Below are positions 12,011-37,355 of a DNA stretch of 40,000 nt, one piece after another (the stretch's first letter is position 1; every line of letters starts with the position of its first letter). Source of the stretch: Anaerolineaceae bacterium (GTDB lineage Bacteria > Chloroflexota > Anaerolineae > Aggregatilineales > Phototrophicaceae); the NCBI GenBank assembly GCA_020634165.1, contig JACKCF010000002.1, positions 17,767 through 57,766 of the forward strand, given 5' to 3'. The translations under genes and the position numbers were made by a program. The notes under the pieces were generated by a model that saw only the letters and a list, made by a program, of their open reading frames with translations, was not told where the DNA came from and ran no database searches.

Positions 12011-12037
12011 CTGTGACCAACAACCTCATACAGCACG

Positions 12038-12068: not shown

Positions 12069-12125
12069 GTTTAGTTATATTGTTTGTTGGCGACTCTGAG
12101 AAGGTGAATTATCGGATTGGCGAAT

Positions 12126-14036: not shown

Positions 14037-14038
14037 AG

Positions 14039-20090: not shown

Positions 20091-20131
20091 CTTATGGAGT
20101 AAACAGGATTATAACCGAATCCTGACGTGGC

Positions 20132-20194: not shown

Positions 20195-20249
20195 ATCGGA
20201 AACCGGTTTGCATTGGAACCGGGTCAGTTTTGTTTTGCCGGAAGCCACC

Positions 20250-20927
20250 ATGAGCACTGTCACCGCCCGATCCGAGGCACTCGAAAAGACCATTCAGCAG
20301 CTGCAGCGCCAGTTCGGCCAGCAGGTGATTGCTGCTGCAAGCCGCTTGTCGCAGGCTGAGGTGTTGCACACAGGCGTCACTGCCCTGGATACGGCGCTGG
20401 GTGGCGGATTGGCAGTCGGCCAAATCAGCGAGCTGCGTGCGCTACCCGGTCATGGGGCAACCTCACTGGCGATGCGCCTCATTGCTTCGGCACAGGCAGC
20501 AGGCCGAATCGGTATTTTCATGGATCTGGCAGATGCCTTCGATGCCAGCGCTGCCCACCATGCTCATGTCGATTTTATGCGTTCGCACTTCCTGCTGGTA
20601 CAGCCGCCTTCGCCAACAGATGCCTTCATTTTTGTGCAGGCCGTGCTCCATGCCCGCATTCCCGGTATCGTCATCGTGCGACCGCATCCGCAGCAGCCCT
20701 TGCCCCAGCTGCCCTGGTCGCGGCTGAAAGGAGCGCTCGCCAGTTTGCCGCTGGTCGTCGTCGTGATTCAGCCGCCTGCATCAACCGAAATCGAGGCCGC
20801 AGGCACGCGCCTGCTTTTGAAGCGCGTATCCGGTGACAATACGGTGCAGATTCGCATTCTGCGCCATCCATTGGGCAAAGCCGGGCAGGTAGTAAGAGTT
20901 CCCCTGTTGCCGGAAGGGTCGCGCTGA
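20250..20927 (+). CDS. imuA: ImuA-like RecA-fold protein of the imuA-imuB-dnaE2 mutagenesis cassette
   Basis: LDTALGGGLAVGQISELRALPGHGATSLAMRLIA is a RecA/ImuA-type P-loop region. Its stop overlaps the imuB start (TGATG). I prefer the ATG at 20250 (MSTVTAR...) because the candidate SOS boxes lie within the longer track ORF. Confidence 0.75.
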   Translation: MSTVTARSEALEKTIQQLQRQFGQQVIAAASRLSQAEVLHTGVTALDTALGGGLAVGQISELRALPGHGATSLAMRLIASAQAAGRIGIFMDLADAFDASAAHHAHVDFMRSHFLLVQPPSPTDAFIFVQAVLHARIPGIVIVRPHPQQPLPQLPWSRLKGALASLPLVVVVIQPPASTEIEAAGTRLLLKRVSGDNTVQIRILRHPLGKAGQVVRVPLLPEGSR

Positions 20928-22108: not shown

Positions 22109-22365
22109 GTTACCTGTGGCTTCCGGGCATTCCGATCCGGGTGTGGCTCAGATATGGTGTGCCCAATCGTTTTCAGTGGGAACGGCAGTCCTTTTTTGTG
22201 GCGCACATCGTCGATAGCTGGCGCGTTGATACCGGCTGGTGGCGGCTGGAACGGCGTGCCTGTCAGTACTGGCAGATCACGACCACGACCCGGGTGCTGA
22301 TGGTCATCTACCGCGATGAACTGTCGCTCGAACCCGCATGGTTTCTGGAACAACTGGTAGATTAG
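22105..22365 (+). CDS. small conserved-looking protein between imuB and dnaE2 (Trp-rich; possibly a DUF6504-type imuB-associated protein)
   Basis: 86 aa with an ATGA overlap with the imuB stop; ends 3 nt before the GTG start of dnaE2. WRVDTGWWRLERRACQYWQI motif. The family name is from memory only. Confidence 0.5.
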   Translation: MSYLWLPGIPIRVWLRYGVPNRFQWERQSFFVAHIVDSWRVDTGWWRLERRACQYWQITTTTRVLMVIYRDELSLEPAWFLEQLVD

Positions 22366-22367
22366 TT

Positions 22368-25300
22368 GTGGGTTACGTCGAACTGCACTGCCATTCGTGC
22401 TACAGCCTGAAGGATGGCGCATCCACCCCAGTGGAACTGGTTCAGCAAGCCAAAGCGCTGGGCATGAGCGCCCTCGCCCTGACTGATCACAATGCGGTTT
22501 ATGGCGCGGTCGAATTCTGCAAAGCGGCGACCGAGGTCGGCATCAAACCGATCTTTGGTGCGGAAATGACGCTTGATTCCGGGCATCACCTGACGCTACT
22601 GGTGAAAAATCTGCGCGGCTGGTCGAACCTCGGACACCTGATTACACTGGCACAATTCAATGCGCCCAAGGGCGAAGCACTCATTGCGCTGGATACCTTT
22701 TTCGGACATACCGATGGCCTGATTGCCCTCACTGGCTGTCGAAATGGATTATTGGCAGAACATCTTATAAGGAAAGATCGAGCAGCAACAAAGTCGGCGC
22801 TGAAAGACCTGATTGCCCTGTTTGGCAAGGATAATCTATGGGTGGAATTGCAGAGGCATCATCTGCCGGGGGAGAAGGCACTCATTCAGCAGCTTGTGGC
22901 GCTGGCGAAGTCGGAGCAGGTTGGTATCGTGGCGACCAACAACGTGCATTACGCCACCCCGGAGCGCAAACCGCTGCAGGATGTGCTGGTGTGCGTCGAG
23001 CACCTGACCAACCTTGATGATGCTCAGGCACGCGGCCTGCTGCGCATCAACCACGAATACCACCTCAAATCAGTCCGGCAGATGAGTGACCTGTTCGCCG
23101 ACTATCCCGAAGCGATCACCAACACACAGCTCATCGCCGATCAGTGCAACTTTATTCCTGAATATGGTTATCAGGACTTGCCGGAATTCCCCACGCCGAA
23201 CTATCTGCCAGCAGAAGTATATCTGCGCCAGTTATGCGAAGCAGCGTTGGCAAAGCGCTTTTCAGGCGAGACCAGCAAGGTTCGGGCACAGTTGGAACAT
23301 GAACTGGACGTCATCCGCGAATCGAGGCTGTCGAATTATTTTCTCATTGTGTGGGACATCGTGAATTATGCCGGCAGCCAGAACATCCTGTGTCAGGGAC
23401 GCGGCTCGGCGGCGAATTCGCTGGTGGCCTATTTGCTGCACATCACACCGATTGACCCTATTGAGCATGGCCTGGTCTTCGAGCGTTTTCTGTCGAAGGA
23501 ACGGCAGGTCACACCTGATATCGACATCGACTTTGACAGTGCGAGGCGCGAGGAAGTCATCCAGTATGTGATGCAGCGCTATGGCACCGATCATGCCGCC
23601 ATGACCTGCACCTTTATCACCTACCGCACCAAGAGTGCCCTGCGTGATGTGGGACGGGCGCTGGGTGTGCCGCCGGAATGGATCGAACGCGCTTCGAAGG
23701 CCGTGCGCGGCTACCGGGGCGCCAATCGCAAGCCTCTGAGCTTCATCGACGAGACGGTCGAGGAACCGCTGGATGATTCGGTTGTGGAACAAATTTACGC
23801 GCTGGTCGAACAGCTTCAGGGACTGCCACGCCACATTGGGCAGCACAACGGCGGCATGGTCATCATGCGCGACATCCTCAGCCAGCGCGTGCCGATTGAA
23901 CCGGCCACCATGCAGGATCGTGTCGTCATTCAGTGGGACAAGGAAGCCCTGGAAACGGTCAATCTGGTCAAGTTTGACATTCTGGGGCTGGGCATGCTGG
24001 CGGCCATTCAGGAAGCATCGGACACAGTGCTGCGGCTGACGGGCAAACCGTTCCGCATTGAAGACCTGACCTTCGACGATCCAGCGATTTTCAGAATGAT
24101 CGCCGAAGCCGACACTATCGGCCTGTTTCAGGTGGAGAGCCGCGCACAGGCCCAACTTTTGCCGCGCTTCCAGCCAAAAAACTTTAGCGACATTATTATC
24201 GCCATCTCGCTGATTCGACCGGGGCCGATTCAGGGTGGTATGGTGCATCCCCTGCTTCGGCGACGTACCGGACGTGAGGAGGTAACGTATCTGTATGATG
24301 CCCTGCGCCCTTCGCTGGAAGAGACCTATGGCGTCATTGTGTGGCAGGAACAGGTGCTGCTTGTTGCACGCGACATCGCTGGATTCACAGCAGGCGAAGG
24401 TGAGCAGCTTCGACGGGCGCTGGGCGCGAAAAACGGTTATGAGCGCGTCGAATCGTTCCATGACCGCTTCATCATGGGCGCAGCCAGCAAGGGCATTTCT
24501 GCCGAAATTGCTGAAGCCATCTTTGACCAGCTTCGTGGCTTCGGGGGCTATTCCTTCGCCAAATCGCACGCCGCCAGCTTCGCCGTGCTGGTGTACGCCT
24601 CGGCGTACTTGCGGAAGTATCACCCGGCGGCTTTTTACTGCGCCCTGATCAACGCCCAGCCGATGGGCTTCTGGTCGGTCGATGTGCTGACCAACGATGC
24701 GGCTCGGCTTGGTGTGAAAACGCTCAAGGTAGACATCAACCGCAGCGTAGCCAGAACCGAGGTGCTGGATGCGAAAAATATCCGGCTGGGCCTGACGCAG
24801 GTGAAAAGCATCGGCGAATCGAGTGCAGATCGCATCCTTGCGGCACGCGAGAAAGGCAGCTTCAACAGCCTCGAGGATCTATGCCGACGCACACAGCTCC
24901 CTGAACGCAAGATCGAGAATCTGATTCAGGCCGGTGCGGTCGATGCGTGGGGCATTCCGAGGCGCAAGTTGATCTGGCAGGCGGGACTCTACAAGGCCGA
25001 TGAGGATGAACTCGATCTGGCGTATCTGGCGGAGGAACTGGCACTGCCCTTGCAGCATGGGGTGCAGGAGCAGGCGATGGAGTACAGTGTGACCGGCATC
25101 AACACGGGCGACCACCTGATGAGTTATGCCCGCGACTGGCTGAGGCAGCGCGACACCCTCGCCAGTTATGAACTGGCGGACTGCTCCCATAATTCGATTG
25201 TGCGGGTGGCGGGGCAGAACCGTGTGGCGCAGTCGCCGCAGACCGCGAAGGGCATGACCTTCCTGACGCTGGAGGATGAATGGGGCATGATGAACATTGT

Positions 25301-25466
25301 CGTGCGTCCCGACATCTTCGGACGCTATGCCCGCATCATTCTGGATAGTCCGCTGCTGCTGGTGAAAGGCCTGCTGGAGCGTGGCGATGGTGGCACGATC
25401 AATGTGCTCGCGCATCAGTTTGCTGCGCTGCCGATGCAGACCTTACTGTATTTATGTCCGCGTTGA
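22368..25466 (+). CDS. dnaE2: error-prone DNA polymerase III alpha subunit DnaE2
   Basis: PHP domain start (V/M)GYVELHCHSCYSLKDGAS and polymerase core motifs (FDILGLGML, GLFQVES, RPGP). ~1030 aa. Alternative ATG at 22338 overlaps the preceding small ORF. Confidence 0.92.
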   Translation: MGYVELHCHSCYSLKDGASTPVELVQQAKALGMSALALTDHNAVYGAVEFCKAATEVGIKPIFGAEMTLDSGHHLTLLVKNLRGWSNLGHLITLAQFNAPKGEALIALDTFFGHTDGLIALTGCRNGLLAEHLIRKDRAATKSALKDLIALFGKDNLWVELQRHHLPGEKALIQQLVALAKSEQVGIVATNNVHYATPERKPLQDVLVCVEHLTNLDDAQARGLLRINHEYHLKSVRQMSDLFADYPEAITNTQLIADQCNFIPEYGYQDLPEFPTPNYLPAEVYLRQLCEAALAKRFSGETSKVRAQLEHELDVIRESRLSNYFLIVWDIVNYAGSQNILCQGRGSAANSLVAYLLHITPIDPIEHGLVFERFLSKERQVTPDIDIDFDSARREEVIQYVMQRYGTDHAAMTCTFITYRTKSALRDVGRALGVPPEWIERASKAVRGYRGANRKPLSFIDETVEEPLDDSVVEQIYALVEQLQGLPRHIGQHNGGMVIMRDILSQRVPIEPATMQDRVVIQWDKEALETVNLVKFDILGLGMLAAIQEASDTVLRLTGKPFRIEDLTFDDPAIFRMIAEADTIGLFQVESRAQAQLLPRFQPKNFSDIIIAISLIRPGPIQGGMVHPLLRRRTGREEVTYLYDALRPSLEETYGVIVWQEQVLLVARDIAGFTAGEGEQLRRALGAKNGYERVESFHDRFIMGAASKGISAEIAEAIFDQLRGFGGYSFAKSHAASFAVLVYASAYLRKYHPAAFYCALINAQPMGFWSVDVLTNDAARLGVKTLKVDINRSVARTEVLDAKNIRLGLTQVKSIGESSADRILAAREKGSFNSLEDLCRRTQLPERKIENLIQAGAVDAWGIPRRKLIWQAGLYKADEDELDLAYLAEELALPLQHGVQEQAMEYSVTGINTGDHLMSYARDWLRQRDTLASYELADCSHNSIVRVAGQNRVAQSPQTAKGMTFLTLEDEWGMMNIVVRPDIFGRYARIILDSPLLLVKGLLERGDGGTINVLAHQFAALPMQTLLYLCPR

Positions 25467-25525: not shown

Positions 25526-27286
25526 ATGAATGTCATCCGACTATTCATGTGGGGTTATCAAGACTCATTCTGGATAGAAGCGAAACTTGCCGCAGAAAAG
25601 GTCTTCAATCAACTTGACTCTGACTTCAAACCGCAGGTTTTTCTCCTAGGTATACTTTCGGAAGATTTGGAGGAGCGATATCCTGTCTGTTTTGAGCCAG
25701 AAGAGTGTGGATTGCAGGAAGAGTGGTTTACTGAAATACAAGAGCAAGCCAAACATTATGAGGCAATCGACGAAGAAAGACACTATTTTCACTCCCATCC
25801 ATTGTCGCAAGAAAAACACGAGCAACACCTCAAGCTCAAGGCTTTGCGCAAAGCCTTACTGGAAATATTGAATTCACACAATAGCGTTAGTACAAATTAT
25901 GAGGTTTTTTGCTCTTATCCAATTTTGGTAAGCGGATATCGTGTTTTTGTTGTACTGAAGCTCAATGAAGCTTGCTATCAAAAATATTATGCACTAAATA
26001 CTACCCATTTGAGACGAGATAAAATACCTACTTCCTTGATTGACGCAGTGATTTTAGAGTATTTTGCTGCTTGTCAGAGAGCTCTAATGCTACCTAATCC
26101 GGGAGCAGGACTTAAAACCTTAGAACGAGAACCGACGGAGATTATCAACTTGGCTGGTCGATTCTTAATGTATACGCCAGCGCTAAAGAGTGAAGCTGGC
26201 AACAATATTGCTTCATATACGTTATTTGAAGACTGCAACACCATTTCATCTCTGACTTACGAAGGGGCAGAAGGTCGTGGAAAGATAATTCTCGCTCCAC
26301 CCAATCATCCTAATGTTTCGATTGATATTTTATTTGCCAAACCTGTTGCTTTCAAGAATTTTGGTGCAGTACGAAAACTACTAGAACTTTGCGGTCATCG
26401 TGAAAGCCTCATTGCTGATTCAACCTCAATTTATGGATTAGGTTACGTATCAGGCACTTACGATGTGAGGTATGAAAACTTGTTTCAAATCAACTTCACT
26501 CGGCAGCATTCATGGGAACTGGTTCATGCTCAACATACTATGATGCGCGTAAAATATCGCCAAGCAAATATCCCAAGTTCGGTAATTAATGAAACCAAAT
26601 TCAGAACAGACGCTGGACGTATTTTCCCAAACATTGAACCCAAACAAATTGAAGCGCTGCTTGAACTAATTGTCGCCGCGACTAAACAAAAACACGGGGC
26701 TCTGGTCATAATTGCTGAAGACGCAGAACAAGAAGCAACCAGACTTGCAAATGAATCAACTGTCATACAACCTATCCCATTAACTCCTGAACTGATGAGT
26801 TTGGTTACGGCTATTGATGGAGCTGTTCTTGTTTCACCTGATGCAACCTGTTTTGCAATAGGAGTTATATTAGATGGCCGAGCTACGCCAAAGGGTAACC
26901 CCGCAAGAGGTGCTCGCTATAATTCAGCGATTCGTTACGTTGAAAGTCAAAATCAAAGCCTTGCAATTGTAGTTTCCGAGGATGGCGGAGTCAATTTAAT
27001 TCCTAATCTAATGCCACAAATACGCAAGTCTGAACTTATACGACACATCGAAATTATAGGGGAAGTACACACTTCTGAGAAGCGTGATCGCATAGCTTAT
27101 TATGCATCTGAAGAATGGCTAAGATCACATCAATTTTATCTCTCGAAAGAACAATGCGACAAATTAAATATGATGATGAGAGAGATAACACGGGGTTTCC
27201 TACGTGAAAGTGGATGGGGTATTGAACACAATGATCTTCAACCTCATGAAGATATGAATGAATCATATTTCATGATCGAAGATTGA
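25526..27286 (+). CDS. 586-aa protein with unassigned N-terminal ~370 aa and a C-terminal diadenylate-cyclase-like (DisA_N/DAC) domain with altered catalytic motif
   Basis: HGALVIIAEDAE (from aa 390), IDGAVLV (D431-G432-A433), GARYNSAIRY (R464-Y465-N466 where DACs have RHR) and AIVVSEDGGVNLI align to the DAC pattern GALIVI / HDGA / GTRHRAA / VSEETG. Confidence 0.6.
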   Translation: MNVIRLFMWGYQDSFWIEAKLAAEKVFNQLDSDFKPQVFLLGILSEDLEERYPVCFEPEECGLQEEWFTEIQEQAKHYEAIDEERHYFHSHPLSQEKHEQHLKLKALRKALLEILNSHNSVSTNYEVFCSYPILVSGYRVFVVLKLNEACYQKYYALNTTHLRRDKIPTSLIDAVILEYFAACQRALMLPNPGAGLKTLEREPTEIINLAGRFLMYTPALKSEAGNNIASYTLFEDCNTISSLTYEGAEGRGKIILAPPNHPNVSIDILFAKPVAFKNFGAVRKLLELCGHRESLIADSTSIYGLGYVSGTYDVRYENLFQINFTRQHSWELVHAQHTMMRVKYRQANIPSSVINETKFRTDAGRIFPNIEPKQIEALLELIVAATKQKHGALVIIAEDAEQEATRLANESTVIQPIPLTPELMSLVTAIDGAVLVSPDATCFAIGVILDGRATPKGNPARGARYNSAIRYVESQNQSLAIVVSEDGGVNLIPNLMPQIRKSELIRHIEIIGEVHTSEKRDRIAYYASEEWLRSHQFYLSKEQCDKLNMMMREITRGFLRESGWGIEHNDLQPHEDMNESYFMIED

Positions 27287-27615
27287 AGCATAATAATGAT
27301 GAGGTCGCATAACGAATAATGTTCTTGTGCTAACTTGAGTTAAGCACCTCACATATCTATTTCTCCAGTGACCTCGCCGATGAATTTCGCGCCGTTTGAG
27401 TTATGGCAGTAGCCTGGCGTGTGCCCATCCACATGCTGCTTCGGATTGTGTGAATATATTATATTGGGTAAACCAACCATATGATTTGCTAAGTCTAATG
27501 GGATCTTTTTCGAGTTCACCCGGAATAAGGTCCAACATATGCTATAGGTTACGTTATAGGGTAATATTGATGAATTACATGCCATTTACTGTGTTAAGAA
27601 CGGTCATATTGTAAA

Positions 27616-29499
27616 ATGCCGAGTTTCACGGTTGAGTACAATTCAAAGGGACGCTTGGGACAATTCAGCTTTGAGAATGGGATAACTAATATCTCAACAC
27701 CTTTTATGTTCCCAGTGGCTTCAACAGTGACTGGCACAACAGCAAATGGGGGCGGAATATGGAAGTATATTCTTCAGGCATATCCAGATACTGATACGGA
27801 TGTTAATCAGGCCCTCATGCGTCGAGGGATGCCCATTCTTTCACAAGCACTTCAGTTCCTGGATTATGGTGTTAGCAAAAACAAAGTTAATCTTTGGCGG
27901 CAACAGTCGATCCGGAAGATGTATAATGAAGCACATAGAATGGACTATAAGGCACCTATTTTTCTTGATTCTGGTGGATTCAAGTTAATGTGGCGTGAAG
28001 GTCTCAATCTTGATGAATATGGGATCAACCTAAGTCCATCAAAAGAAGCACATAGCATCTTATGTCTGCAGCATGACTTGGGTGCGAACATTATTGCCAG
28101 CCTAGATTATCCAATACCCCCCAATCTTGCTCCGTCTGAAGCTAAGCAAAGAATGAAAAGAAGTCGTAGAAATGCTATCACTGTTGCTCGCTATCTGCGG
28201 GATGGAGAATTTTCAAGCTGGAGACCTTTTCTTTACATGCCAGTTCATGGGTTGTCACCGGAAGCAATCTCAGCATATGTAAAAAACCTATTCAATAGCG
28301 TATATACCTATGGGCTTGGTAATGATCCCATCGGAATTGCGGTAGGCTCTCTTGTCCCCCTGCGATTCTCTCGCACAAACCTATATCGGATCATCACAAT
28401 TGTCGATGCCGCAGTAAAAGCAATACCTGCCAAATACCGAGATCGAATCCCTGTACACGTTTTTGGTGTCACAGGAATCTTAATTCCGTTTTTAGCATAC
28501 TGCGGTGTTGATACCTATGATTCAAGTACTTATGTTAAGGAGGCCATTAATCTTAGATACATGCATCCCGATACAAGAGTTGGTCATGCTGTATTGGAAA
28601 TGACAGAAGATGATTTCATTTGCGATTGTGATGTTTGTCGGAATATTAAATTACTGGAATTACAAGAAGCTCTTGCGGCTGAGGGAACGGGCAAACCTTT
28701 AGTCCAATCTGGTCACTACAAAAGTAAATATTATGCTGATATTGCCTTACATAACTTGGAACAAGACTTCAAAATATTACGAGAAACGAGACATGCCATA
28801 AAACAAAATTATATGGCTGAGTTTATCTTGCAAGTGGCTGAGCGATTCCCACGAATGCGATATGCACTTGATGGTCTCTGTGACACTAATAAGGATTTGA
28901 GACTCAAAGCATCCAAACGCATACAACCTGTTATAAAAACAAAAAAAATAACCAAATCGATTGTTTTTCAGACACTTTCTCATACCCCGGATGATTTTAA
29001 TATTGCACATATGAATGGACATATTAACAGATCATATCCTCGTATTCTGTTATTGCTTCCATGCTCGTCAGACAAACCTTATTCTGATTCAAGAACACAT
29101 AAGTACGTTGAAAAGCATATACATGACTATATTCCTGGAATGAGAGATAAAATTCATAAGGTTTCATTGTCAGGGCTCTATGGGCCCGTTCCCGAAGAAT
29201 ATGAAACATGCAAACCTGTACTTGACTATAACTATCGTCTAATTCCGAAAAACGAAGCGCAGATAGAACTAGTCACTACACGGCTTGTTGAATATCTTGA
29301 AATTCACGGTGCAAAATATCTACATTGCGTAGCGTATGCAACGAGTAAGGCTTATCGTTTGGTATTTGAAAAAACAGCAGAACAATACCCATCCCTGACA
29401 CTTTTACCCACTGCTCCCAAGTCTAAACGACTTACAGAGTTTTTCAGAACAAAAAACATCCAAGAATTAGTTAACATGATAAGTGATATGCTTGATTAA
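27616..29499 (+). CDS. TGT/DpdA-like (tRNA- or DNA-guanine transglycosylase family) protein fused to an ArcS-type (DUF5591-like) C-terminal domain
   Basis: TGT motifs FLDSGGF (D118), CGVDTYD (D299, D302) and the Zn site CDCDVC (C336, C338, C341) with a later H in IALHNL. The C-terminal PCSSDKPYSDSRTH (aa 482-495) fits the ArcS motif PC-X3-KPY-X2-S-X2-H. Confidence 0.75.
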   Translation: MPSFTVEYNSKGRLGQFSFENGITNISTPFMFPVASTVTGTTANGGGIWKYILQAYPDTDTDVNQALMRRGMPILSQALQFLDYGVSKNKVNLWRQQSIRKMYNEAHRMDYKAPIFLDSGGFKLMWREGLNLDEYGINLSPSKEAHSILCLQHDLGANIIASLDYPIPPNLAPSEAKQRMKRSRRNAITVARYLRDGEFSSWRPFLYMPVHGLSPEAISAYVKNLFNSVYTYGLGNDPIGIAVGSLVPLRFSRTNLYRIITIVDAAVKAIPAKYRDRIPVHVFGVTGILIPFLAYCGVDTYDSSTYVKEAINLRYMHPDTRVGHAVLEMTEDDFICDCDVCRNIKLLELQEALAAEGTGKPLVQSGHYKSKYYADIALHNLEQDFKILRETRHAIKQNYMAEFILQVAERFPRMRYALDGLCDTNKDLRLKASKRIQPVIKTKKITKSIVFQTLSHTPDDFNIAHMNGHINRSYPRILLLLPCSSDKPYSDSRTHKYVEKHIHDYIPGMRDKIHKVSLSGLYGPVPEEYETCKPVLDYNYRLIPKNEAQIELVTTRLVEYLEIHGAKYLHCVAYATSKAYRLVFEKTAEQYPSLTLLPTAPKSKRLTEFFRTKNIQELVNMISDMLD

Positions 29500-29615
29500 T
29501 ATCTCTATAACTAACCAAAAATCGCATATGAATATATAATAGTAATCCTTACCTAAATTACATAACTTAAATCGAACTGTTTGTGGGCGTGCCAAGTAAT
29601 GTATGAGGAAATACT

Positions 29616-32600
29616 ATGGTTAGTAATCAGATTCTTCAAGAAGATTTCGATGCTCTAAAATCATCTTTTTTGCTAATTAATCAGGATAACAATGTTCCCA
29701 CAACAATGTTTGTTGAATCTTATAGTCAAATAGTCCCCTCAAAGACCCGTGTCGAAATTCGTGAAGGTTTGTACATCCCTCGACCATTGGAAGTCGCTCG
29801 AATCCTCCGACATTTGAAACAAAGATTTACCCCAAATGGTAACTATGCTTCCTTGGTAAGTCGAATTCGTGCAGAGATCATACTTCGTGAGCGACCTTAT
29901 CGAAATACAAAACCAGAAGATGTACCACAATCGCTGCGAAATATTGCTGAAATCGGTCGTCTCAATAACATAATTGAGTTTCGTTATTCTGAATTCCAGT
30001 GGCGTGGGTGGCAAATTGTGCTAGAGGCATTAGCAAAATCCCAACTGGGCCAACCCGCAGGAGTAGTGGCGACAGCACCAACAGGTTCTGGTAAAACAGA
30101 AACATTCATGTTGCCCATCATCACTGACACTGTAGAAGCGGCAGCGCGAGGTGCAGAAAGACATTTTGTTTTTATTTATCCGAGGCGTGCGCTAGCCCAA
30201 GACCAATTATCTAGGGTTCTACGTTACGTAAAAAATGCGTGTAATCACTTTAAAATGCCCGATCATCGCATAATTGTTGGCATTCAATTCACAGGCATTG
30301 CTTCAAGTAGAGAATCCACGTTACGAAACCGCAATATATTTCACAACAGGCGCAGTTTTAAGTTGTTAGATAGATGTCCGTGGTGTGGCAAACGTAAACA
30401 ATTGATTTTTCAAACACAGGGAGAATATTCATACCTACAGTGTTCTGAGTGTGAGAATCGAGTCGCTGTTTCACTCTCTAAAAACGATCACAGCTCATTA
30501 AATCCTAATTTGATGATTACAACTGCTGAGTCCTTAGACAATATGTATATGGATTGGGATTTTCGTGATTATATACCGAAGATCGACGGTATTATTTTTG
30601 ACGAGGCACATTTATTCAACCAAGTATATGGAGCTCATATCCATCACCTGATTCAGCGCGTTAGAAATATTGTCCGCGAAATCTCTCGAAAGGAACTGCT
30701 ACTAATTGCTTCTAGTGCTACCATTTCTGAGCCTGCTGATTTTGCTAATCGCTTATTTTATGGTAATGAGAATCCTCCTAGTAATATTTATTCCATTGAC
30801 GCCAATCAATATGAAATGAACCCAAGTGGTATCGAAACATTTTTCTTTTTGCAGACTGATAATGCGCGACAAACGATGTCGACAATGATTCAAACGGTGA
30901 TGGCAACAATGCATGGAGCAATTAATGATGATCGACGGGCTATCATATTCGCAAGCTCATTGGACACTGTGGGACGCTTAAAAGTACAGTTTGACGATGC
31001 CGAGATAAACCAACAACTTTGGAGGATGAGGATCAACAACCAAGATATTAATGTTTTTCAATTTGAGAATGTATCTTGTCCGCGCACAACACCGTATATT
31101 TGCTCACTATATGATATGGGAGAATGCTGGCGTGGCATCTTAGGCGGAATACAATGCCATGAGAATCCAATATTGGGGATGCGTTCCAGTAGTTTGGAGA
31201 CACAAACAATTACAGGAAATACACAAGGCAGCCGATCACTTGATAAGCCAGTTATCATCGGAACATCTGCCTTAGAAGTAGGCATTGATGATCCTACAGT
31301 ACAGACAACTTTTCATTATCGACCTCCTCGGACAGTCTTTGATTTTATCCAAAGAAGAGGCCGGGCAGGACGGAAAGAAAATGATACTGCTTATACAGTG
31401 ATGGTCTTGGGACAAGATTCAACAGATCATTTCTATCTGGTGCGTCGTCATCGCCTAATTGCTGGTCAATACTCTCTCCCACTCAACCCTAACAATCCAG
31501 TAGTTACTCGAATTCATGAATTACTTAGTCAAAGTCGGGCTGAAGGTTTTCGACTCGTCAGTAGCAACGGAAGTGAATTGAATGGTACATGGCTTTGGCT
31601 TGTTCATACACTCCAAAATTCGTCAATAGTTTCTTCGGCGCATGAAGCGCTACTGAACGAAGTGTTACGGGCGCGCAGCTTCGATGTAAAGAAAGCAAAA
31701 TTACTGAAATGGATTAACGAAAATATTGAAGCTCTTGAAAATCAACTGGCTGATCGTGGTATGTTCAGGACAAATAGATATCCTACACTTCCTATGCTTG
31801 TGGCTGTGTTTGACGATATTGTAGCGGCGTATGATTCTTGGGTTGAAGAAGAAGATGTAACAACACAAGATACAGCAAAAAAGTTAATAAGTTATCAGCA
31901 TAGACTAGGGGATATGTATTCGGCTTTTGATGGTAGAGCATACGATCGCAGGCGGTTTACAGAGGAGTTTGATGTTGTCAGTCAAACATTACAACGGATG
32001 ATCGCTAACATACAGGAAGAACAGCGGGAAGTTCGAGACAGATTTCGTGAGACAAGGGCATGGTATGATTTCTTTTTTCATCTACGTAAATTATATGATC
32101 AGGATTGGATTTTTTACACTTTTTCATATGTAGTGAAGTATATTTATCAAGCACTATTCTTCTTAAATCGCGGATTTGATAACCAAACGCAAAATGAGAT
32201 TGATGTATATGTTCCCGATAATTATTTCGGCAACATAACTCCAATGCGTGTTCATATTGGTGATCAGAATAAGCGAACAACAGAGCCGATAACTTATTTG
32301 GAATCGTTATTTTATCCCTATCGTATTAGCTACCGTTATGCAAGTGATGCCGCCCACACCCAGCTTGCTCCAATGTATATGCTAGATAGCCGCAGCAGAG
32401 AAATAATTGGACCTAACCAAGTAAGAATAAAGCCGGCGGCCTATGGTTTGTCGATTGCAGATCCAGAAAACCCTGACTATTCAGTTCGCAAAGTTCGTGA
32501 AATCCGTGTTATGGAGCTTCAGGCTGATGCCCGTCAAAACATTAGCATGTGTCAAACTTGTTTCCGCACTTACGATATAGATTTTGACCAAATGAATTGT

Positions 32601-33473
32601 GAATGTGGCGGCGATATTGCTCAGGGTTCAATATTTGTGGAAAAAACATATACAAGACAAGGGATACACGAGCAACAACGGCGAATAAATATAGGTAATA
32701 GTTTTAGCATAGTACCTGCTCTGGATACGTGGACAAAAGTTAACGGTTCCCAAGTTACGTTTACACCTTTGAATGGCGGACGAAGAATTCGGTTCAATGC
32801 TTGGTTGAGCCCTAGCTTATATTTTTCTATCCCAACTAAGGGTATTTCTTGGAGGGTGCGTGCCATTGCTAATCATGTTGAGGAAAGCCTTCATGCTGCC
32901 GCCCATGTCTTGGTTAAGGCAATGGCATCAGTTGTAGGCGTGCGTGAAGATCAATTAGCATATAGTTGGCAGTCTGAGAGTCAGGAAGTAGTAGTTTGGG
33001 AAAAATATGAGGGTGGTGCAGGGCTATGTGAGATATTTGCAGATCGTTTGCAACGTAATCCTTTAGAAGTCTATCAGGAAATGGTCTCTGTTGTAGCATG
33101 TCCCATATATTTATCAGAACAAAAAGGGCATTTGTGGGAGACAGATGATGAACTGCGAAATTACTTATCTCATGAATTTGGACTTGCCCCTGAAACAGCA
33201 TTACTTAAAGAAATTATCGATAACACCATATCGGAATCGAGATCGAATACTTCCGAGTTGGTCTGCACAGATAATGATGGTTGTCCAGTATGTATTACAT
33301 CCATCACGAATGCTCAGGATGATCAACCGAGTCGTTTGATCGCTTGGAGGTTAATCGGTGATTTAATAAAGGTATTTGAAGAGAGCGAATGGAAAGAAAT
33401 TACCCCAGAACAATTCGCCCCTGTAGTGTGGGTAGATAACAATGCGGAACTAATATATGTCTTGGTCTTCTAA
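29616..33473 (+). CDS. large DEAD/DEAH-box (YprA/MrfA-like) helicase with inserted zinc ribbon and C-terminal DUF1998-like 4-Cys domain
   Basis: Walker A APTGSGKT (K160), motif Ia YPRRALAQDQ, FDEAH (D329-H332), SSAT and QRRGRAGR. Zn ribbon CPWC...CSEC (aa 254-279) lies between motifs I and II. C-terminal CQTC (979-982), NCECGG, WEKYEGGAGL (1128-1137) and CPVC (1223-1226). Confidence 0.8.
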   Translation: MVSNQILQEDFDALKSSFLLINQDNNVPTTMFVESYSQIVPSKTRVEIREGLYIPRPLEVARILRHLKQRFTPNGNYASLVSRIRAEIILRERPYRNTKPEDVPQSLRNIAEIGRLNNIIEFRYSEFQWRGWQIVLEALAKSQLGQPAGVVATAPTGSGKTETFMLPIITDTVEAAARGAERHFVFIYPRRALAQDQLSRVLRYVKNACNHFKMPDHRIIVGIQFTGIASSRESTLRNRNIFHNRRSFKLLDRCPWCGKRKQLIFQTQGEYSYLQCSECENRVAVSLSKNDHSSLNPNLMITTAESLDNMYMDWDFRDYIPKIDGIIFDEAHLFNQVYGAHIHHLIQRVRNIVREISRKELLLIASSATISEPADFANRLFYGNENPPSNIYSIDANQYEMNPSGIETFFFLQTDNARQTMSTMIQTVMATMHGAINDDRRAIIFASSLDTVGRLKVQFDDAEINQQLWRMRINNQDINVFQFENVSCPRTTPYICSLYDMGECWRGILGGIQCHENPILGMRSSSLETQTITGNTQGSRSLDKPVIIGTSALEVGIDDPTVQTTFHYRPPRTVFDFIQRRGRAGRKENDTAYTVMVLGQDSTDHFYLVRRHRLIAGQYSLPLNPNNPVVTRIHELLSQSRAEGFRLVSSNGSELNGTWLWLVHTLQNSSIVSSAHEALLNEVLRARSFDVKKAKLLKWINENIEALENQLADRGMFRTNRYPTLPMLVAVFDDIVAAYDSWVEEEDVTTQDTAKKLISYQHRLGDMYSAFDGRAYDRRRFTEEFDVVSQTLQRMIANIQEEQREVRDRFRETRAWYDFFFHLRKLYDQDWIFYTFSYVVKYIYQALFFLNRGFDNQTQNEIDVYVPDNYFGNITPMRVHIGDQNKRTTEPITYLESLFYPYRISYRYASDAAHTQLAPMYMLDSRSREIIGPNQVRIKPAAYGLSIADPENPDYSVRKVREIRVMELQADARQNISMCQTCFRTYDIDFDQMNCECGGDIAQGSIFVEKTYTRQGIHEQQRRINIGNSFSIVPALDTWTKVNGSQVTFTPLNGGRRIRFNAWLSPSLYFSIPTKGISWRVRAIANHVEESLHAAAHVLVKAMASVVGVREDQLAYSWQSESQEVVVWEKYEGGAGLCEIFADRLQRNPLEVYQEMVSVVACPIYLSEQKGHLWETDDELRNYLSHEFGLAPETALLKEIIDNTISESRSNTSELVCTDNDGCPVCITSITNAQDDQPSRLIAWRLIGDLIKVFEESEWKEITPEQFAPVVWVDNNAELIYVLVF

Positions 33474-33942
33474 GTCGTTACAATGGATGATTCCTGGTAT
33501 CTTTTTAACTGCAAAGAAGTCAAGCAAAATAGTTATAATGAGTCCTTGGATTGATGATGTGGAATTACTTATATATTCTTGGAATGGGCGAGAACAATTA
33601 GCTGGCAATGTTTTACTTTCAAATGTAATGAAATGGCTGCATAGGAATCGCAATAATCATTTTCTAGCTTACGTACGGACAGATCAACTGTATCCTAGGA
33701 TTAATCCTCGGTTAAATCGTGTACAAAGTCGAGCCTCTTCAGCTTTGGAAGTTCGAGATATTCAATATTTGCACGCGAAATTACTAATCACAGATGCAAT
33801 GGTTTTAGAAACTTCTGCGAATTTTCTGACTTATAGCATTCACAGAAATGTCGAAAGTCTCTATATTAGAAAAAATCCGTTACAAAATGCATCAGCTTTT
33901 GCTCAGGACTTCATTACTAGACACGGCCACAGTCAACTATGA
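33457..33942 (+). CDS. phospholipase D-family (single HKD) nuclease-like protein
   Basis: HKD motif LHAKLLITDAMVLETSANF (H106, K108) and an N-terminal IVIMSPWI strand typical of PLD/Nuc. Overlaps the helicase 3' end; an alternative start is at 33487. Confidence 0.75.
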   Translation: MSWSSKSLQWMIPGIFLTAKKSSKIVIMSPWIDDVELLIYSWNGREQLAGNVLLSNVMKWLHRNRNNHFLAYVRTDQLYPRINPRLNRVQSRASSALEVRDIQYLHAKLLITDAMVLETSANFLTYSIHRNVESLYIRKNPLQNASAFAQDFITRHGHSQL

Positions 33943-34346
33943 AGATTTATGTTGCAGGACCACTGTTCAATACTATGGAGCGCAGCTACTTAGAGGAAAT
34001 CGCAACTGCACTTGAGAATGCAGGTTACAATACATTTCTTCCGCACAGAGATGTTGGGTTATTAGATAGTATTGATGATGTTAATCGAGAGCATATATTC
34101 CGCGCAGATATGACTGCGTTGGATGACTGCGATATTTGTGTTGCATTACTAACTGGACCTGATCATGATTCAGGTACCAGTGCAGAAATTGGCTATATGT
34201 ATGCCAAAGGAAAACCATGTTTTGGTATCACTGATGATATGCGATGGATGAATAATCTCATTTGGGGGCTTTGTAACTCAGGCAACAATATCTGTACATC
34301 AATCGAGACATGCATTCAACTGCTAAAAACGCAAATTAGTCAGTAG
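33939..34346 (+). CDS. nucleoside 2-deoxyribosyltransferase-family protein
   Basis: MKIYVAGPLFN N-terminus and DSGTSAEIGYMYAKGKP (catalytic-Glu context) match the NDT/Rcl family pattern. ATGA overlap with the PLD gene. Confidence 0.75.
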   Translation: MKIYVAGPLFNTMERSYLEEIATALENAGYNTFLPHRDVGLLDSIDDVNREHIFRADMTALDDCDICVALLTGPDHDSGTSAEIGYMYAKGKPCFGITDDMRWMNNLIWGLCNSGNNICTSIETCIQLLKTQISQ

Positions 34347-35013
34347 TAATTAAAGGATTAAGCTGCGTATTAGCGTTGATAGCATCGATACCCTCCTGCC
34401 TTTTTATAAAGTTTACTGTCAGATAAGTTAGGGGAGTTGCCAGAGACTCATACAATGTTTTGAACAACCATTGTGTAATGACAGCCAATACCAAATCATT
34501 GGTTGCCATGGTTCCAGCGAAAGCAATCACAATAAATATTAGAGAATCAAAGCCCTGACCAACAACAGTAGAAGTTATAGTCCTAGACCATAGCCAGCGT
34601 CCTTTTGTTAGTTTTTTCATTCTATCGAGGATATACGCATTCAAGAATTCGCCAATTAGATATGCGATAAATGAAGCAAAAAGTAGGCGAGGAGTGTAAC
34701 CAAGGATTCGTTCATATGCTGCTTGTCCGTCCCAGAAATTGGCAGATGGAAGAAGTTGTCCTGCGACAATGCCTGCCACAGCAACAAGATTGCAGAAAAA
34801 ACCAAGCCATATTACTCGACGTGCATTTCGAAATCCATAGACCTCGGTAAGAATATCACCTACGATGTAGCTGATTGGAAAAATGACTATGCCCGCGGGC
34901 ATGATAAAGCCCCAGATATCCACCAGCTTTACTGCCGCAATATTGGCAGTGATTAGAGATGTAATAAATAGACCTGCAATTGATACAAACCAAATTGAAT
35001 ATTTGTTTGACAT
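34336..35013 (-). CDS. yhhQ: queuosine-precursor (preQ0/preQ1) transporter, YhhQ/VUT family
   Basis: Six-TM protein with ITANIAAVKLV...PAGIVIFPISYIVGDILTEVYG, characteristic of YhhQ (DUF165). Confidence 0.8.
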   Translation of the reverse strand: MSNKYSIWFVSIAGLFITSLITANIAAVKLVDIWGFIMPAGIVIFPISYIVGDILTEVYGFRNARRVIWLGFFCNLVAVAGIVAGQLLPSANFWDGQAAYERILGYTPRLLFASFIAYLIGEFLNAYILDRMKKLTKGRWLWSRTITSTVVGQGFDSLIFIVIAFAGTMATNDLVLAVITQWLFKTLYESLATPLTYLTVNFIKRQEGIDAINANTQLNPLITTD

Positions 35014-35025
35014 GTAGTCTCCGGT

Positions 35026-35694
35026 TTACTGATAATGTAGTGGATCCTTGATCCCCACATCGTGAAAGGCTTTCAGTCGTTCAGCACATGTAGGACAGTT
35101 TCCACAAGCTAAATCTTCGCCTCTATAACAAGACCAAGTTTTACTATAATCTACTCCAATCTTTAATCCAATCTGCAGAATATCTGTTTTTGTGAAATTG
35201 ACAAACGGTGCTCTGATAAGAATTTGATTTGGCTGCAAATCGTAAACGGCATTTACTCTAGACGTGAATTCAGATGTCGTATCCCAATAACCATAGATAT
35301 CGTGTTTCTGAGCACCATAAAAAACTTCTTGCACTCCTAGTGTCTCTGCCCATGCAATTGCAAGTGATAGAAATATCATGTTTCGATTAGGTACATAGGT
35401 CGAAGGCGGTACTTCTTTGGAGACATGTGTTGCTGAAGGAATCTCCATATCTTTATTGACCAAAGAAGACTTGAGCCATAGATCCTGAAGAGGTGATAGA
35501 TCAACAATCATATGGAGTAACCCAAGAGATTGGGTGTGCATTTGAGCAAATCGCACCTCCTTGTTATGACGTTGACCATACTTGAATGTAATAACTGCAG
35601 GGATTCGCTTTCTTTCATGCAAGTAATACAGCAATGTTGTGCTGTCAAATCCACCGCTTAATATCACAACCGAATCAGACCTACCTTCATTCAT
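35026..35694 (-). CDS. queC: 7-cyano-7-deazaguanine (preQ0) synthase QueC (divergent)
   Basis: PP-loop VVILSGGFDSTT, YVPNRN and the C-terminal Zn cluster CYRGEDLACGNCPTCAERL. It has YWDTTSEF where canonical QueC has YPDCRPEF. Confidence 0.85.
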   Translation of the reverse strand: MNEGRSDSVVILSGGFDSTTLLYYLHERKRIPAVITFKYGQRHNKEVRFAQMHTQSLGLLHMIVDLSPLQDLWLKSSLVNKDMEIPSATHVSKEVPPSTYVPNRNMIFLSLAIAWAETLGVQEVFYGAQKHDIYGYWDTTSEFTSRVNAVYDLQPNQILIRAPFVNFTKTDILQIGLKIGVDYSKTWSCYRGEDLACGNCPTCAERLKAFHDVGIKDPLHYQ

Positions 35695-35868
35695 ACGCTT
35701 ATATTTCCCAAATTCCTAACACCATACTTGTATATGAAATAGTAACTAATTGTACACACTAAAAATAGCTACTAAAAATCGACCTTGACTTAGCGCTTGT
35801 AGGTAAACACTGCGCCTTTGCATCCCTGTCTAATATCCTACTCGCCCATTCGTTAAAATCATGCCTTT

Positions 35869-36420
35869 GCTGCCTTTCTCATTGCACAGTACCACGCCAC
35901 CCCACAGCCTCATACCTGTAGACAGGTACGGCTACGGGTTTGCTTCTGGCTTGTGCCGTTTCACTCATAGCAAACCCGTGCCGTCCTTCGGATGGGCTGT
36001 GGGGAACCCCGACGTGGTATGGCCTGTGCAGAAAGGCAGCTTAACAAAAGCATATTCGGATTACCGACTGGACGGTGTTTCGTTAGCCAGGTCTCGTTTG
36101 CTCGAAAGGGCGCGTTGTAATCCCCGGAGCCTCTGTGCTCCGACGGTCTCCTGTAGACGGTCGCTCTGATCCGATATGCCATCCCTGCCCTCAACAGTCC
36201 GGTTGAGCGGTGCTATAGCGGTCGTGGATGCTGGTGAATTGTGATATTCACCAGACTGGAAGGGTCAACGTCTCGAGGTTTTCGTTCGTGCGAAGCCGGG
36301 GCGCATCCAGGCTGTGAACAACGGTCAAGCGCAGAATTACATCTGAGCTTGTCTCGCACCGATAGGCGGTAGACAACAGATTTTTCACTACTCACGCTCA
36401 TCACGATCTACGGATTGTGG
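35869..36420. other. GC-rich, ORF-poor, highly self-complementary non-coding region (candidate large structured RNA or ssDNA-active element)
   Basis: Nested colinear helices: 35869-79/36030-40 (11 bp), 35884-89/36024-29, 35891-96/36013-18 and 35900-09/35995-36004 (10 bp). These enclose hairpins 35914-27 and 35934-79. A second domain is closed by 36050-61/36169-79, with hairpins at 36125-42, 36190-207 and 36231-54. Confidence 0.45.
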
Positions 36421-36470
36421 TGGGCGTTTTTGCTTACCCACACACCATTTCACCTTTCAGGAGGTGCGAT

Positions 36471-37355
36471 ATGATCGAAATCACGATCCACACAGATGGC
36501 TCGTGCCAGACGCAGACGCACAGCGGTGGCTGGGCAGCGGTGCTGATGAGTGGCACCCATCGTATGGTTCTCAGCGGCAGCGCTGAGGAGACAACTGTCA
36601 ATGCAATGGAATTGATGGCAGCAGTGAACGGACTGAAAGCGCTCAAGAGAGCGAACCAGACCGTCATGCTGGTGACCGACTCGCAGTATGTAACGCGCGG
36701 CGTAAACGAGTGGTTGTCCGCTTGGATCGAACGCGGCTGGCTGACAACGAACAAGAATCCAGTAGCGAACCGCAATCTGTGGGAGCAGATGAACGGACTG
36801 CTGGCACAACACCATGTCACAGTGATGTGGGTACCGCGTGAGCAGAACATCGAAGCAGATGGGCTAGCTCAGGAAGCGCGGCTCAATCACGGATTAACCG
36901 CGACGAAAGCAGTGCAGACGATCACACACCTGATGATCGCAGGATCACGCACAGCCACATCGCAAATGCTGGCCTATGCCCGCCGTGCAGTGCGTCGCGC
37001 TCACGACCGCGGTTACACGGTGATCGTTGGGGACAACCCAAAAGGCGTGGATATGGCGGTGATACGTGAGTGCCGTCGCTTGAAAACACCCGTGATTGTG
37101 GCGGGTCCGAGCAACTTTCCGCGCAACGGCGGCTGCAAGCACGGGCAATATGTGATGGTTCATCCCGACACATACTCTGCGGCCAATGGGCGCAGGCTCA
37201 ATCGTTACACAGTACGGGATCGCTGGTTGGCAGACACGGCTCAGATTGGTCTGTTTATCTGGAATGGTGCAAGTCCCGGTACGAAGGCTGGGTTTGATTA
37301 TATGATCGGGCGCAACAAGGATGCCCACCTGATTAATTTCGGTGCGGAGGTGTAA
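36471..37355 (+). CDS. RNase HI domain fused to a SLOG/DUF2493-like (DprA-related) C-terminal domain
   Basis: RNase H DEDD residues in the contexts HTDGSC, AMELMA, VTDSQY and NIEADGLA. The C-terminal half IVGDNPKGVDMAV...PVIVAG resembles SLOG/DUF2493. The RBS caggagg precedes the ATG at 36471, so the track start at 36417 is unlikely. Confidence 0.75.
   Translation: MIEITIHTDGSCQTQTHSGGWAAVLMSGTHRMVLSGSAEETTVNAMELMAAVNGLKALKRANQTVMLVTDSQYVTRGVNEWLSAWIERGWLTTNKNPVANRNLWEQMNGLLAQHHVTVMWVPREQNIEADGLAQEARLNHGLTATKAVQTITHLMIAGSRTATSQMLAYARRAVRRAHDRGYTVIVGDNPKGVDMAVIRECRRLKTPVIVAGPSNFPRNGGCKHGQYVMVHPDTYSAANGRRLNRYTVRDRWLADTAQIGLFIWNGASPGTKAGFDYMIGRNKDAHLINFGAEV

Follow-up and report, generated by a model that had tools for sequence, protein, structure and literature searches.

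We analyzed a stretch of 40,000 nucleotides from the metagenome-assembled genome of an Anaerolineaceae bacterium (contig JACKCF010000002.1, positions 17,767 to 57,766; called the window below) and, within it, a set of six genes at 27616–35694. With moderate confidence, we interpret these genes as a compact defense module of the restriction-modification type, built on a 7-deazaguanine mark in DNA. Their central product, TGT-ArcS, joins a tRNA-guanine transglycosylase (TGT)-like domain to a domain of the ArcS type. We propose that it is the modification module of such a system because the enzyme is conserved and intact, is accompanied by genes supplying its precursor, and occurs on plasmids and integrative conjugative elements (ICEs) next to exchangeable DNA-targeting arms. 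Restriction-modification with the deoxynucleosides of 7-cyano-7-deazaguanine (dPreQ0) and of 7-amido-7-deazaguanine (dADG) has been described for the Dpd system (dpdA-K) of Salmonella Montevideo and other bacteria (Thiaville 2016; PMC10164549).

Organization of the locus

An initial annotation, made from the sequence alone, had described seven genes at 25526–35694. All seven open reading frames (ORFs) are present where it placed them, and Pfam bears out their domains. The functional unit is formed by six of them; the first, a gene for a DAC-like protein (25526–27286), is excluded for reasons given below. The unit opens on the plus strand with the gene of the presumed modification enzyme, the 627-aa TGT-ArcS fusion (27616–29499; Pfam TGT 2e-20, DUF5591 4e-15). 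It is followed on the same strand by a 1285-aa DpdJ-like DEAH helicase, presumed to be the restriction motor (29616–33473; Pfam DEAD, ResIII, and Helicase_C), a 161-aa DpdK-like phospholipase-D (PLD) nuclease with a single HKD motif (33457–33942), and a 135-aa enzyme of the nucleoside 2-deoxyribosyltransferase (NDT)/DNPH1 family (33939–34346; Pfam Nuc_deoxyrib_tr 1.4e-24). The minus strand carries a YhhQ/Vut_1 transporter for the queuosine precursors preQ0 and preQ1 (34336–35013; Pfam Vut_1 5e-54) and QueC, the 7-cyano-7-deazaguanine (preQ0) synthase (35026–35694; Pfam QueC 5e-61).

The gene overlaps noted in the initial annotation can be read directly in the sequence. The ATG of the PLD gene at 33457 precedes the TAA of the helicase gene (33471–33473), giving an overlap of 17 nt, and the PLD and NDT genes share an ATGA at 33939–33942, which suggests translational coupling. 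The NDT and yhhQ genes are convergent and their ends overlap by 11 nt. The PADLOC and NCBIfam models of DpdA, DpdB, and DpdC matched nothing in the block, no ORF between 25526 and 37355 matched DpdB, and no DUF6884/DpdC match was found in the block. The earlier statement that DpdB and DpdC are missing is thereby confirmed.

The TGT-ArcS fusion protein

The fusion consists of a base-exchange domain resembling archaeosine TGT (arcTGT; residues ~1–412) and an ArcS C1/DUF5591 domain (~470–627). Pfam and a PDB profile search detected neither a C2 nor an RNA-binding PUA domain, and the sequence stops after DUF5591. The profile, made from 23 homologues, matched the P. horikoshii arcTGT (1IQ8) over residues 90–414 with an E of 5e-24 and the DUF5591 protein AF0587 (2Q07) over residues 466–587 with an E of 2e-7. 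The catalytic and base-binding aspartates D118, D164, and D299 and the zinc site C336/C338/C341/H379 align to the P. horikoshii enzyme and are invariant both in these 23 homologues and in a set of 83 that included every Poribacteria copy. The ArcS C1 motif PC-x3-KPY-x2-S-x2-H (P482–H495) is likewise invariant in the 23 homologues, and in the set of 83 its residues P482, C483, K487, P488, Y489, S492, and H495 are each found 82–83 times. An AlphaFold2 model of the fusion (predicted local distance difference test score, 84.9) gave arcTGT structures as top Foldseek matches in the PDB, which confirms the TGT fold but does not tell DNA-acting from tRNA-acting enzymes. Judging from its sequence, the fusion is a genuine two-activity protein with intact catalytic residues, as the initial annotation had proposed in describing a TGT joined to an ArcS-type domain.

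The fusion stands apart from the curated families. It scored 94.7 bits against TgtA (TIGR00432, cut-off 350) and 85.6 bits against ArcS (NF040592, cut-off 440), and also fell below the cut-off of the bacterial Tgt equivalog, so that NCBIfam places it only in the TGT superfamily. It had no match to a PADLOC model of any kind at E<0.01, nor to an NCBIfam DpdA model at E<0.001. Public records label it tRNA-guanine transglycosylase; one NCBI entry, from an Anaerolineaceae metagenome-assembled genome, has 100% identity to it.

The putative restriction arm

The helicase best matches DpdJ (PADLOC, 1.8e-55; NCBIfam, 3.9e-53 and 180.6 bits against a cut-off of 800), and the alignment covers the helicase core alone. 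It carries GSGKT at 157 (K160), DEAH at 329, a zinc-ribbon insert CxxC...CxxC (C254–C279), and a C-terminal MZB/DUF1998-like zinc domain that scores just under the Pfam cut-off (23.1 against 24.2 bits). The PLD protein has the HxKxxxxD motif at H106 and matches PLDc_2 weakly (20 bits, cut-off 27); its match to DpdK reaches 6.8e-11 in PADLOC and 9.2e-11, or 41.6 bits, in NCBIfam (cut-off 100). Weak matches of the window proteins to DISARM components were also seen (DrmA, 1e-18; DrmC, 1e-4). By these scores, DpdJ and DpdK are the nearest, yet distant, relatives of the two proteins. The pair that had been annotated as a DUF1998-like helicase and a PLD nuclease is thus DpdJ/DpdK-related, with the MZB/DUF1998 and PLDc_2 assignments below Pfam cut-offs; the residues predicted for mutagenesis (helicase K160, TGT D118 and D299, PLD H106) all lie in the expected motifs.

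The fusion family and its exchangeable arms

We assembled about 130 loci encoding relatives of the fusion, 80 from a collection with one genome per species and 51 from JGI metagenomes, together with annotated plasmids, and added six further contigs from exact-protein look-ups (loci are denoted L plus a number). After ORF calling, the loci were clustered and searched with reference proteins, and representatives were annotated with Pfam and PADLOC. Conserved members occur in Chloroflexi, cyanobacteria, Poribacteria, and the megaplasmids of haloarchaea. In about 46 distinct loci, none of them from Poribacteria, a nuclease/helicase module lies immediately next to the fusion gene. This linkage spans three bacterial phyla and the haloarchaea, often with short gaps or with the gene order reversed. 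At least 23 loci besides the window have a homologue of its helicase adjoining the fusion gene. Cultured carriers of the fusion include Thermogemmatispora carboxidivorans PM5 (L014), Allocoleopsis franciscana, Spirulina subsalsa, Nostoc sp. MG11, Planktothrix paucivesiculata PCC 9631, Natrinema sp. SYSU A 869, and Haladaptatus sp. YSMS36.

The arms are of several kinds. A DpdJ-like helicase with a DpdK-like PLD protein lies downstream of the fusion gene in the window and in L001, L003, L007, L085, and L113, and upstream of it in L117, L120-122, L135-137, and L147; L060 has this arm as well. NurA and HerA take this place in L002, L084, L086, L091, L092, L100, L119, and L127. In ten cyanobacterial loci (L004-6, L010, L011, L013, L015, L016, L099, and L102), the arm consists of a GmrSD_N/DUF262 protein (PADLOC NsnA, PD-T4-2_A) and a HEPN_MAE_28990 protein, and in L008 and L076 a helicase is combined with GmrSD_N/DUF262 and HEPN proteins. 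A true DISARM DrmA (1050 bits) with DrmB and a UvrD helicase is found in L070 and L139, a helicase with a DUF4365 protein in L014, and a GIY-YIG nuclease in L081.

In a neighbor-joining tree of the fusion, these arm types are intermixed among close relatives. The sister group of the window protein comprises L001 and L085, both with helicase/PLD arms, and L084 with NurA/HerA; arms are exchanged between close relatives, L001 and L084 being sisters. Pairwise identities between the window and L001 are 67% for TGT, 77% for YhhQ, 67% for QueC, and 67% for NDT, as against 30% for the helicase and 28% for the PLD protein, and the NDT copies of L001 and L084 are 80% identical. Conservation of the arm falls far short of that of the modification and supply genes.

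Plasmid-borne copies show the same association. On a megaplasmid of Natrinema sp. SYSU A 869, the fusion gene is the first of an eight-gene operon resembling the restriction genes of Dpd and is followed by genes for a DruE/DpdJ-like helicase, two hypothetical proteins, a 969-aa ATPase, another hypothetical protein, a DpdJ-like helicase (2e-52), and an overlapping DpdK-like PLD protein. A Haladaptatus plasmid carries two fusion copies and, at a distance of about 10 kb, a weak DpdA/DUF6884 (DpdC-type) pair. In L091, as in the window, the fusion gene is associated with an ICE and type IV secretion system (T4SS) setting.

Taken together, comparative genomics strongly favors a modification-plus-restriction logic. 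The initial annotation had already proposed a self-mark combined with a restriction arm, and had suggested looking for conserved neighborhoods of the 627-aa family; the co-occurrence is seen in about 46 loci with swappable arms, in two domains of life.

One group of loci deserves separate mention. At 11903–20041 of L070, and likewise in L105 and L139, genes for DrmA, DrmB (MZB), and a UvrD-type helicase are convergent to the TGT-ArcS gene, and no methyltransferase was identified within the stretch examined. These loci could represent a DISARM variant in which a deazaguanine mark replaces methylation.

Precursor supply and the NDT-family enzyme

Both members of the yhhQ-queC pair of the initial annotation prove to be canonical, with scores above the curated NCBIfam cut-offs (QueC, TIGR00364, 182.1 bits against 150.3; YhhQ, TIGR00697, 136.2 bits against 50.95). 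Across the family, about 15 loci have queC in the vicinity of the fusion gene, and about 19 have yhhQ next to it.

The NDT-family enzyme bears the catalytic-type motif D-x-G-T-S-A-E-I-G. Its gene is found in five loci (the window, L001, L084, L090, and L091), where its position is unchanged whether the arm is a helicase or NurA/HerA, and we regard it as a genuine accessory because of this recurrence. It was rejected as a marker specific to the system, the subfamily being a common stand-alone chromosomal gene in Chloroflexi. Its earlier inclusion in the system is supported, as the enzyme recurs with two arm types. On a chromosomal contig (L096, 5529–6420), a homologue with 59% identity is divergent to queF, which encodes the preQ0 reductase; this arrangement is a small hint that the subfamily is tied to 7-deazaguanine metabolism outside the island as well.

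Proposed mechanism

We propose the following sequence of events. QueC would convert host-made 7-carboxy-7-deazaguanine (CDG) to preQ0 and YhhQ would import preQ0, as their family assignments above curated cut-offs suggest. The arcTGT-like domain would then exchange guanine in the cell's own DNA for preQ0, with D299 as nucleophile, D118 as acid/base, and the zinc site as further elements. The fused ArcS C1 domain, predicted to stand in for DpdC, would add an amine to the nitrile. The resulting amidine base would be 2'-deoxyarchaeosine (dG+) if ammonia or glutamine is used, or else an adduct of the lysine type; no gene of the locus stands in for DpdB. Incoming DNA lacking the mark would be attacked by the coupled DpdJ-like helicase and DpdK-like PLD protein. 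The NDT-family enzyme might salvage or release the modified base from deoxynucleosides or deoxynucleotides, which is the most tentative step.

The derivatization step is suggested by analogy with two characterized systems. In E. coli, DpdA2 of Vibrio phage nt-1 puts preQ0 into plasmid DNA, and when the stand-alone DUF5591 protein ArcS2 is added, dPreQ0 is lost and dG+ is formed (PMC10516641). The ArcS of T. kodakarensis transfers lysine to the nitrile of preQ0, and its minimal substrate is the preQ0 nucleoside 5'-phosphate, hence it does not need tRNA architecture (PMC11298593). Neither the window block nor the annotated arm-bearing loci contain a radical-SAM gene, and for this reason the final base may be dG+ or a lysine-type adduct. 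As ArcS-type C1 domains transfer lysine and a RaSEA-like enzyme is missing from these loci, an adduct of dPreQ0 with lysine or another amino acid is conceivable.

We tentatively extend this proposal, as a possibility to which we give clearly less credence than to the proposal itself, to the family as a whole. The fusion would then be the hallmark of modular immune systems that are widespread in Chloroflexi, cyanobacteria, and haloarchaeal plasmids and form a class not yet described. As their self-mark, cellular DNA would carry a 7-deazaguanine of the amidine type, perhaps an amino-acid adduct of dPreQ0 new to nature, written without a DpdB-type ATPase. The arm-less Poribacteria copies would represent phylum-wide orphan genome marking.

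Several observations weigh against a self-mark in DNA read by a restriction arm. A single line of evidence, the gene neighborhood, suggests that DNA is the substrate. Salmonella DpdA requires DpdB, which has no counterpart in the block. Proteins of the GmrSD_N type are usually modification-dependent enzymes, so that some arms may act with the opposite logic. The window helicase and PLD protein are far below the DpdJ and DpdK equivalog cut-offs, and the TGT domain is nearest to the tRNA-acting arcTGT, with no match to a DpdA model. Moreover, T. kodakarensis ArcS requires the radical-SAM protein RaSEA to form G+ (PMC11298593), and no such gene accompanies the fusion in arm-bearing loci. Finally, the Poribacteria lineage, described next, has no adjacent arm.

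Alternative explanations

The fusion might be a tRNA enzyme which inserts preQ0 at G15 and then forms the amidine, a one-polypeptide archaeosine-type route, the arms being unrelated cargo. We consider this unlikely, although arcTGT is its closest relative in both sequence and structure, the ArcS motif is present, and the public annotation agrees. Further support comes from Poribacteria, where about 50 species carry the fusion gene in a monophyletic clade with apparently vertical inheritance and without an adjacent arm. Nearly every Poribacteria species genome in the collection encodes one or two copies, with all catalytic residues intact (L019-L062). The neighbors are of the housekeeping type (Fe-ADH, GFO/IDH, ArgD-like, and similar proteins). 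About 13 loci have a QueD-like gene directly upstream, and about 15 encode a type II DNA methylase ahead of the fusion gene, alone or together with a MutH-like endonuclease. This pattern fits a role in tRNA, or an orphan modification, at least as well as defense. Outside this phylum, however, a tRNA role leaves unexplained why the gene adjoins DNA-targeting modules in about 46 loci, a recurrence beyond chance, and why it is borne on plasmids and ICEs. Haloarchaea already possess an arcTGT and an ArcS for tRNA, and the fusion on their megaplasmids therefore counts in favor of a role in DNA. The protein also lacks the PUA and C2 domains, and its scores for the TgtA and ArcS equivalogs are far under the cut-offs.

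A second alternative keeps DNA as the substrate and changes the logic: either invading or damaged DNA would be marked for modification-dependent (type IV-like) arms, or the mark on self DNA would license an effector, after the model of SspE, which senses phosphorothioate. DUF262 proteins include both the modification-dependent GmrSD and the modification-sensing SspE. The cyanobacterial GmrSD_N/DUF262 and HEPN partners, which match PD-T4-2/Nsn-type models, suit such schemes, as does the high diversity of the arms. We regard them as distinctly unlikely. The window's own arm resembles DpdJ and DpdK, assigned in Dpd to restriction of unmodified DNA (PMC10164549; 10.1101/2025.02.24.639861). The precursor supply genes look constitutive, which suits standing self-marking, and there is no sign that the enzyme could single out foreign DNA.

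The mark could also serve mainly to coat the conjugative element or the host genome, for anti-restriction or epigenetic purposes, with the adjacent nucleases and helicases acting independently. The island does lie on an ICE near a T4SS coupling protein, as it does in L091, phage 7-deazaguanines are known to block restriction enzymes (PMC6884629), and the Poribacteria copies are orphans. Set against this, the overlapping ends suggest translational coupling along the helicase-PLD-NDT string, and the arm is linked to the fusion repeatedly, in both gene orders and in distant lineages. Viruses offer little support: no relatives of the fusion were found in IMG/VR viral contigs; in a phage collection the DUF5591 part alone has matches, the ArcS2 proteins of Sulfolobus viruses STSV1 and STSV2 (~33% identity, E 2e-4); and tblastn detected no similarity of the TGT half to phage genomes or phage DpdA. 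On these grounds we rejected a phage origin or a purely anti-restriction role, and the coat explanation as a whole seems quite improbable.

The excluded DAC-like gene encodes a protein with the domain order DACNG-DACNH-DAC (25526–27286, plus strand; Pfam 4e-60, 1e-30, and 5e-12, respectively) and lies 330 nt upstream of the fusion gene on the same strand. It scores 604.5 bits against NF053872 (DS2_3_antiphage; cut-off 630), retains DGA at 431, and reads R-Y-N at the RHR position; it is a probable CdaG/DS-2C-type cyclic-di-AMP (c-di-AMP) synthase of a different defense family. Proteins of the DS-2C type are reported to make c-di-AMP in vitro and sometimes to accompany operons of the anti-phage signaling system that is based on cyclic oligonucleotides (CBASS) (10.64898/2026.08.10.743927 and 10.64898/2026.08.10.743972). 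The initial annotation had counted this gene as a member, but none of the other fusion-family loci among the ~130 has a homologue, the closest relatives L001, L084, and L085 included, and three homologues that were looked up are solitary and lie in unrelated neighborhoods. Membership was therefore rejected: because of this absence, the solitary homologues, and the different defense family, we trimmed the unit to 27616–35694, and the gene is separate cargo lying between dnaE2 and the system.

The idea that the whole 10-kb block is a single seven-gene signaling system of the type IV CBASS or DS-2 kind is accordingly very improbable: the position of the DAC-like gene, the occurrence of DS-2C-type proteins in some CBASS variants (10.64898/2026.08.10.743927), a marginal PDB profile match of the fusion to Cap10 (E 0.006), and the QueC-like and TGT-like proteins reported for type IV CBASS (PMC13639016) speak for it, but the QueC is above the canonical cut-off, no PADLOC model matches the fusion, the DAC-like gene does not recur, and Pfam and PADLOC detected neither a CD-NTase nor a cyclic-nucleotide-binding effector in the block, nor was a CD-NTase or a 2TM effector found near the DAC-like gene.

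As a side observation, a Roseiflexaceae locus (L089) encodes a DS-2C-like homologue at 11429–12880; about 2.7 kb downstream of it are the genes of a 483-aa DUF6884 (DpdC-type) protein and a ScoMcrA_N-like one. This is a single case and probably a coincidence.

Genomic setting

The first 8 kb of the window contain chromosomal genes for sugar utilization. Beyond about 8 kb, the genes are those of an ICE and defense island, and the module is carried as cargo of this conjugative element. Its genes include those for a helix-turn-helix regulator, a methyltransferase, SSB, and HU, as well as two ORFs of 331 and 203 aa without a Pfam match (7974–9584, minus strand), which are uncharacterized ICE cargo. 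An ABC-three-component (ABC-3C) system (12126–15736, minus strand) encodes a 645-aa SMC-like ATPase with DUF3732 and a 565-aa partner, in which a Cap4-type nuclease domain is combined with the MC3 and CTD7 domains of such systems. The T4SS coupling protein (17502–19304) belongs to the conjugative element, as does the imuA(RecA-like)-imuB-dnaE2 mutagenesis cassette (20127–25466) directly upstream of the island. In L070, an unrelated Chloroflexota locus, a DnaE2 homologue with 36% identity (5179–8787) is likewise encoded immediately upstream of TGT-ArcS, and the two cases may reflect a shared ICE backbone or a cargo hotspot. A tRNA-His (anticodon ATG) called by ARAGORN at 25130–25213 falls within the dnaE2 ORF and is almost certainly a false positive.

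After the block comes a 312-aa protein with an N-terminal RNase H domain (36417–37355, plus strand). Its C-terminal ~140 residues match PADLOC PsyrA weakly, and the sequence has a SLOG/DUF2493-like look. A homologue with 65% identity also comes after QueC in L001, and the protein may travel with the island. It is followed by an ORF of 491 aa with neither a Pfam nor an NCBIfam match (37358–38833, plus strand), likewise uncharacterized ICE cargo, and by a DUF4238 protein.

The block had been described as AT-rich between GC-rich flanks. Its G+C content is indeed low (0.37–0.42 at 26–36 kb) compared with 0.56–0.60 at 20–25 kb and 0.52–0.57 at 36–39 kb; since kb 1–20 of the window range from 0.41 to 0.53, however, the flanks are unusually GC-rich as much as the block is AT-rich. 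No direct or inverted repeats were found to bound the block, and an Rfam scan of the whole window at gathering thresholds gave no preQ1 riboswitch or other RNA element. Promoter and terminator scans gave counts no higher than shuffled controls and are hence uninformative. The gaps at 27287–27615 and 35695–36416 contain no credible small ORF.

Comparison with known systems

The closest comparison is with Dpd. In both cases, an enzyme of the TGT superfamily stands beside helicase and PLD genes, whose best matches here are DpdJ and DpdK, and the setting is a mobile island; QueC and YhhQ are encoded in the window island, and preQ0 supply genes sit in a fraction of dpd islands (10.1101/2025.02.24.639861). 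The differences concern nearly every component. The window TGT is arcTGT-like and not a DpdA, there is no DpdB ParB-like ATPase, and DpdC/DUF6884 is replaced by a fused ArcS C1 domain, which predicts an amidine and not the amide dADG. Two restriction genes, both well below the DpdJ and DpdK cut-offs, compare with dpdD-K. By its gene content, the window system would work like Dpd but is not a canonical member, as DpdA, DpdB, and DpdC are absent.

In chemistry, the fusion is likened to the DpdA2 and ArcS2 pair of Vibrio phage nt-1 and the Sulfolobus STSV viruses, in which preQ0 base exchange is followed by action of a DUF5591/ArcS core on the nitrile, and it shares ~33% identity with the STSV1/STSV2 ArcS2 in its DUF5591 part. 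In the window, however, the two activities are fused, the TGT half lacks tblastn similarity to phage genomes, and the carriers are cells, plasmids, and ICEs, not viruses. Its coupling to nucleases and helicases implies defense over anti-restriction. With the archaeosine pathway (arcTGT/TgtA, ArcS, and RaSEA), it shares the N-terminal arcTGT match (1IQ8, 5e-24) and the C-terminal ArcS motif. It differs in having no C2 or PUA domain and no RaSEA-type radical-SAM gene nearby, in scoring far below the TgtA and ArcS cut-offs (94.7/350 and 85.6/440 bits), and in belonging to a family that is mainly bacterial, plasmid-borne in haloarchaea, and surrounded by defense-type neighbors.

DISARM, which consists of the DrmA helicase, the DUF1998 protein DrmB, the PLD protein DrmC, and a methyltransferase, resembles the window arm in combining helicase, DUF1998/MZB, and PLD, and in L070 and L139 the fusion gene lies beside a true DrmA/DrmB pair. 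In the window, by contrast, helicase and MZB form one protein that is closer to DpdJ than to DrmA, a separate DrmB is missing, and there is no methyltransferase in the block, so that the deazaguanine enzyme would be the modification module. The Dnd/Ssp phosphorothioate systems also combine a conserved modification module with alternative arms, among them HerA-type and DUF262-type partners. This likeness is one of design only, as the chemistry is wholly different and the modification modules share no homologous component.

To our knowledge, cellular 7-deazaguanine marks in DNA (dPreQ0 and dADG) come solely from the DpdABC route, and archaeosine-type DNA bases solely from viruses. In a full-text search with incomplete coverage of the literature, we found no account of a fusion between TGT and DUF5591, or of its linkage to DpdJ/K, NurA/HerA, or GmrSD_N/HEPN. 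A recent related survey requires dpdAB (10.1101/2025.02.24.639861), and a different, BREX-related system containing a TGT has been described (PMC12839542).

If confirmed, the fusion would provide a second, independently assembled cellular route that writes deazaguanines into DNA, with one polypeptide and no DpdB, probably producing a different base, and able to work with five or more kinds of restriction arm. Nature would thereby offer a series for studying how nucleases and helicases read a deazaguanine mark, as well as a simple two-activity enzyme for site-specific replacement of DNA bases, and the "tRNA-guanine transglycosylase" annotations that hundreds of bacterial genomes contain would find an explanation. 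As a concrete prediction, which concerns several strains available in culture, it might bring to light DNA bases of the archaeosine type or lysine adducts in cells.

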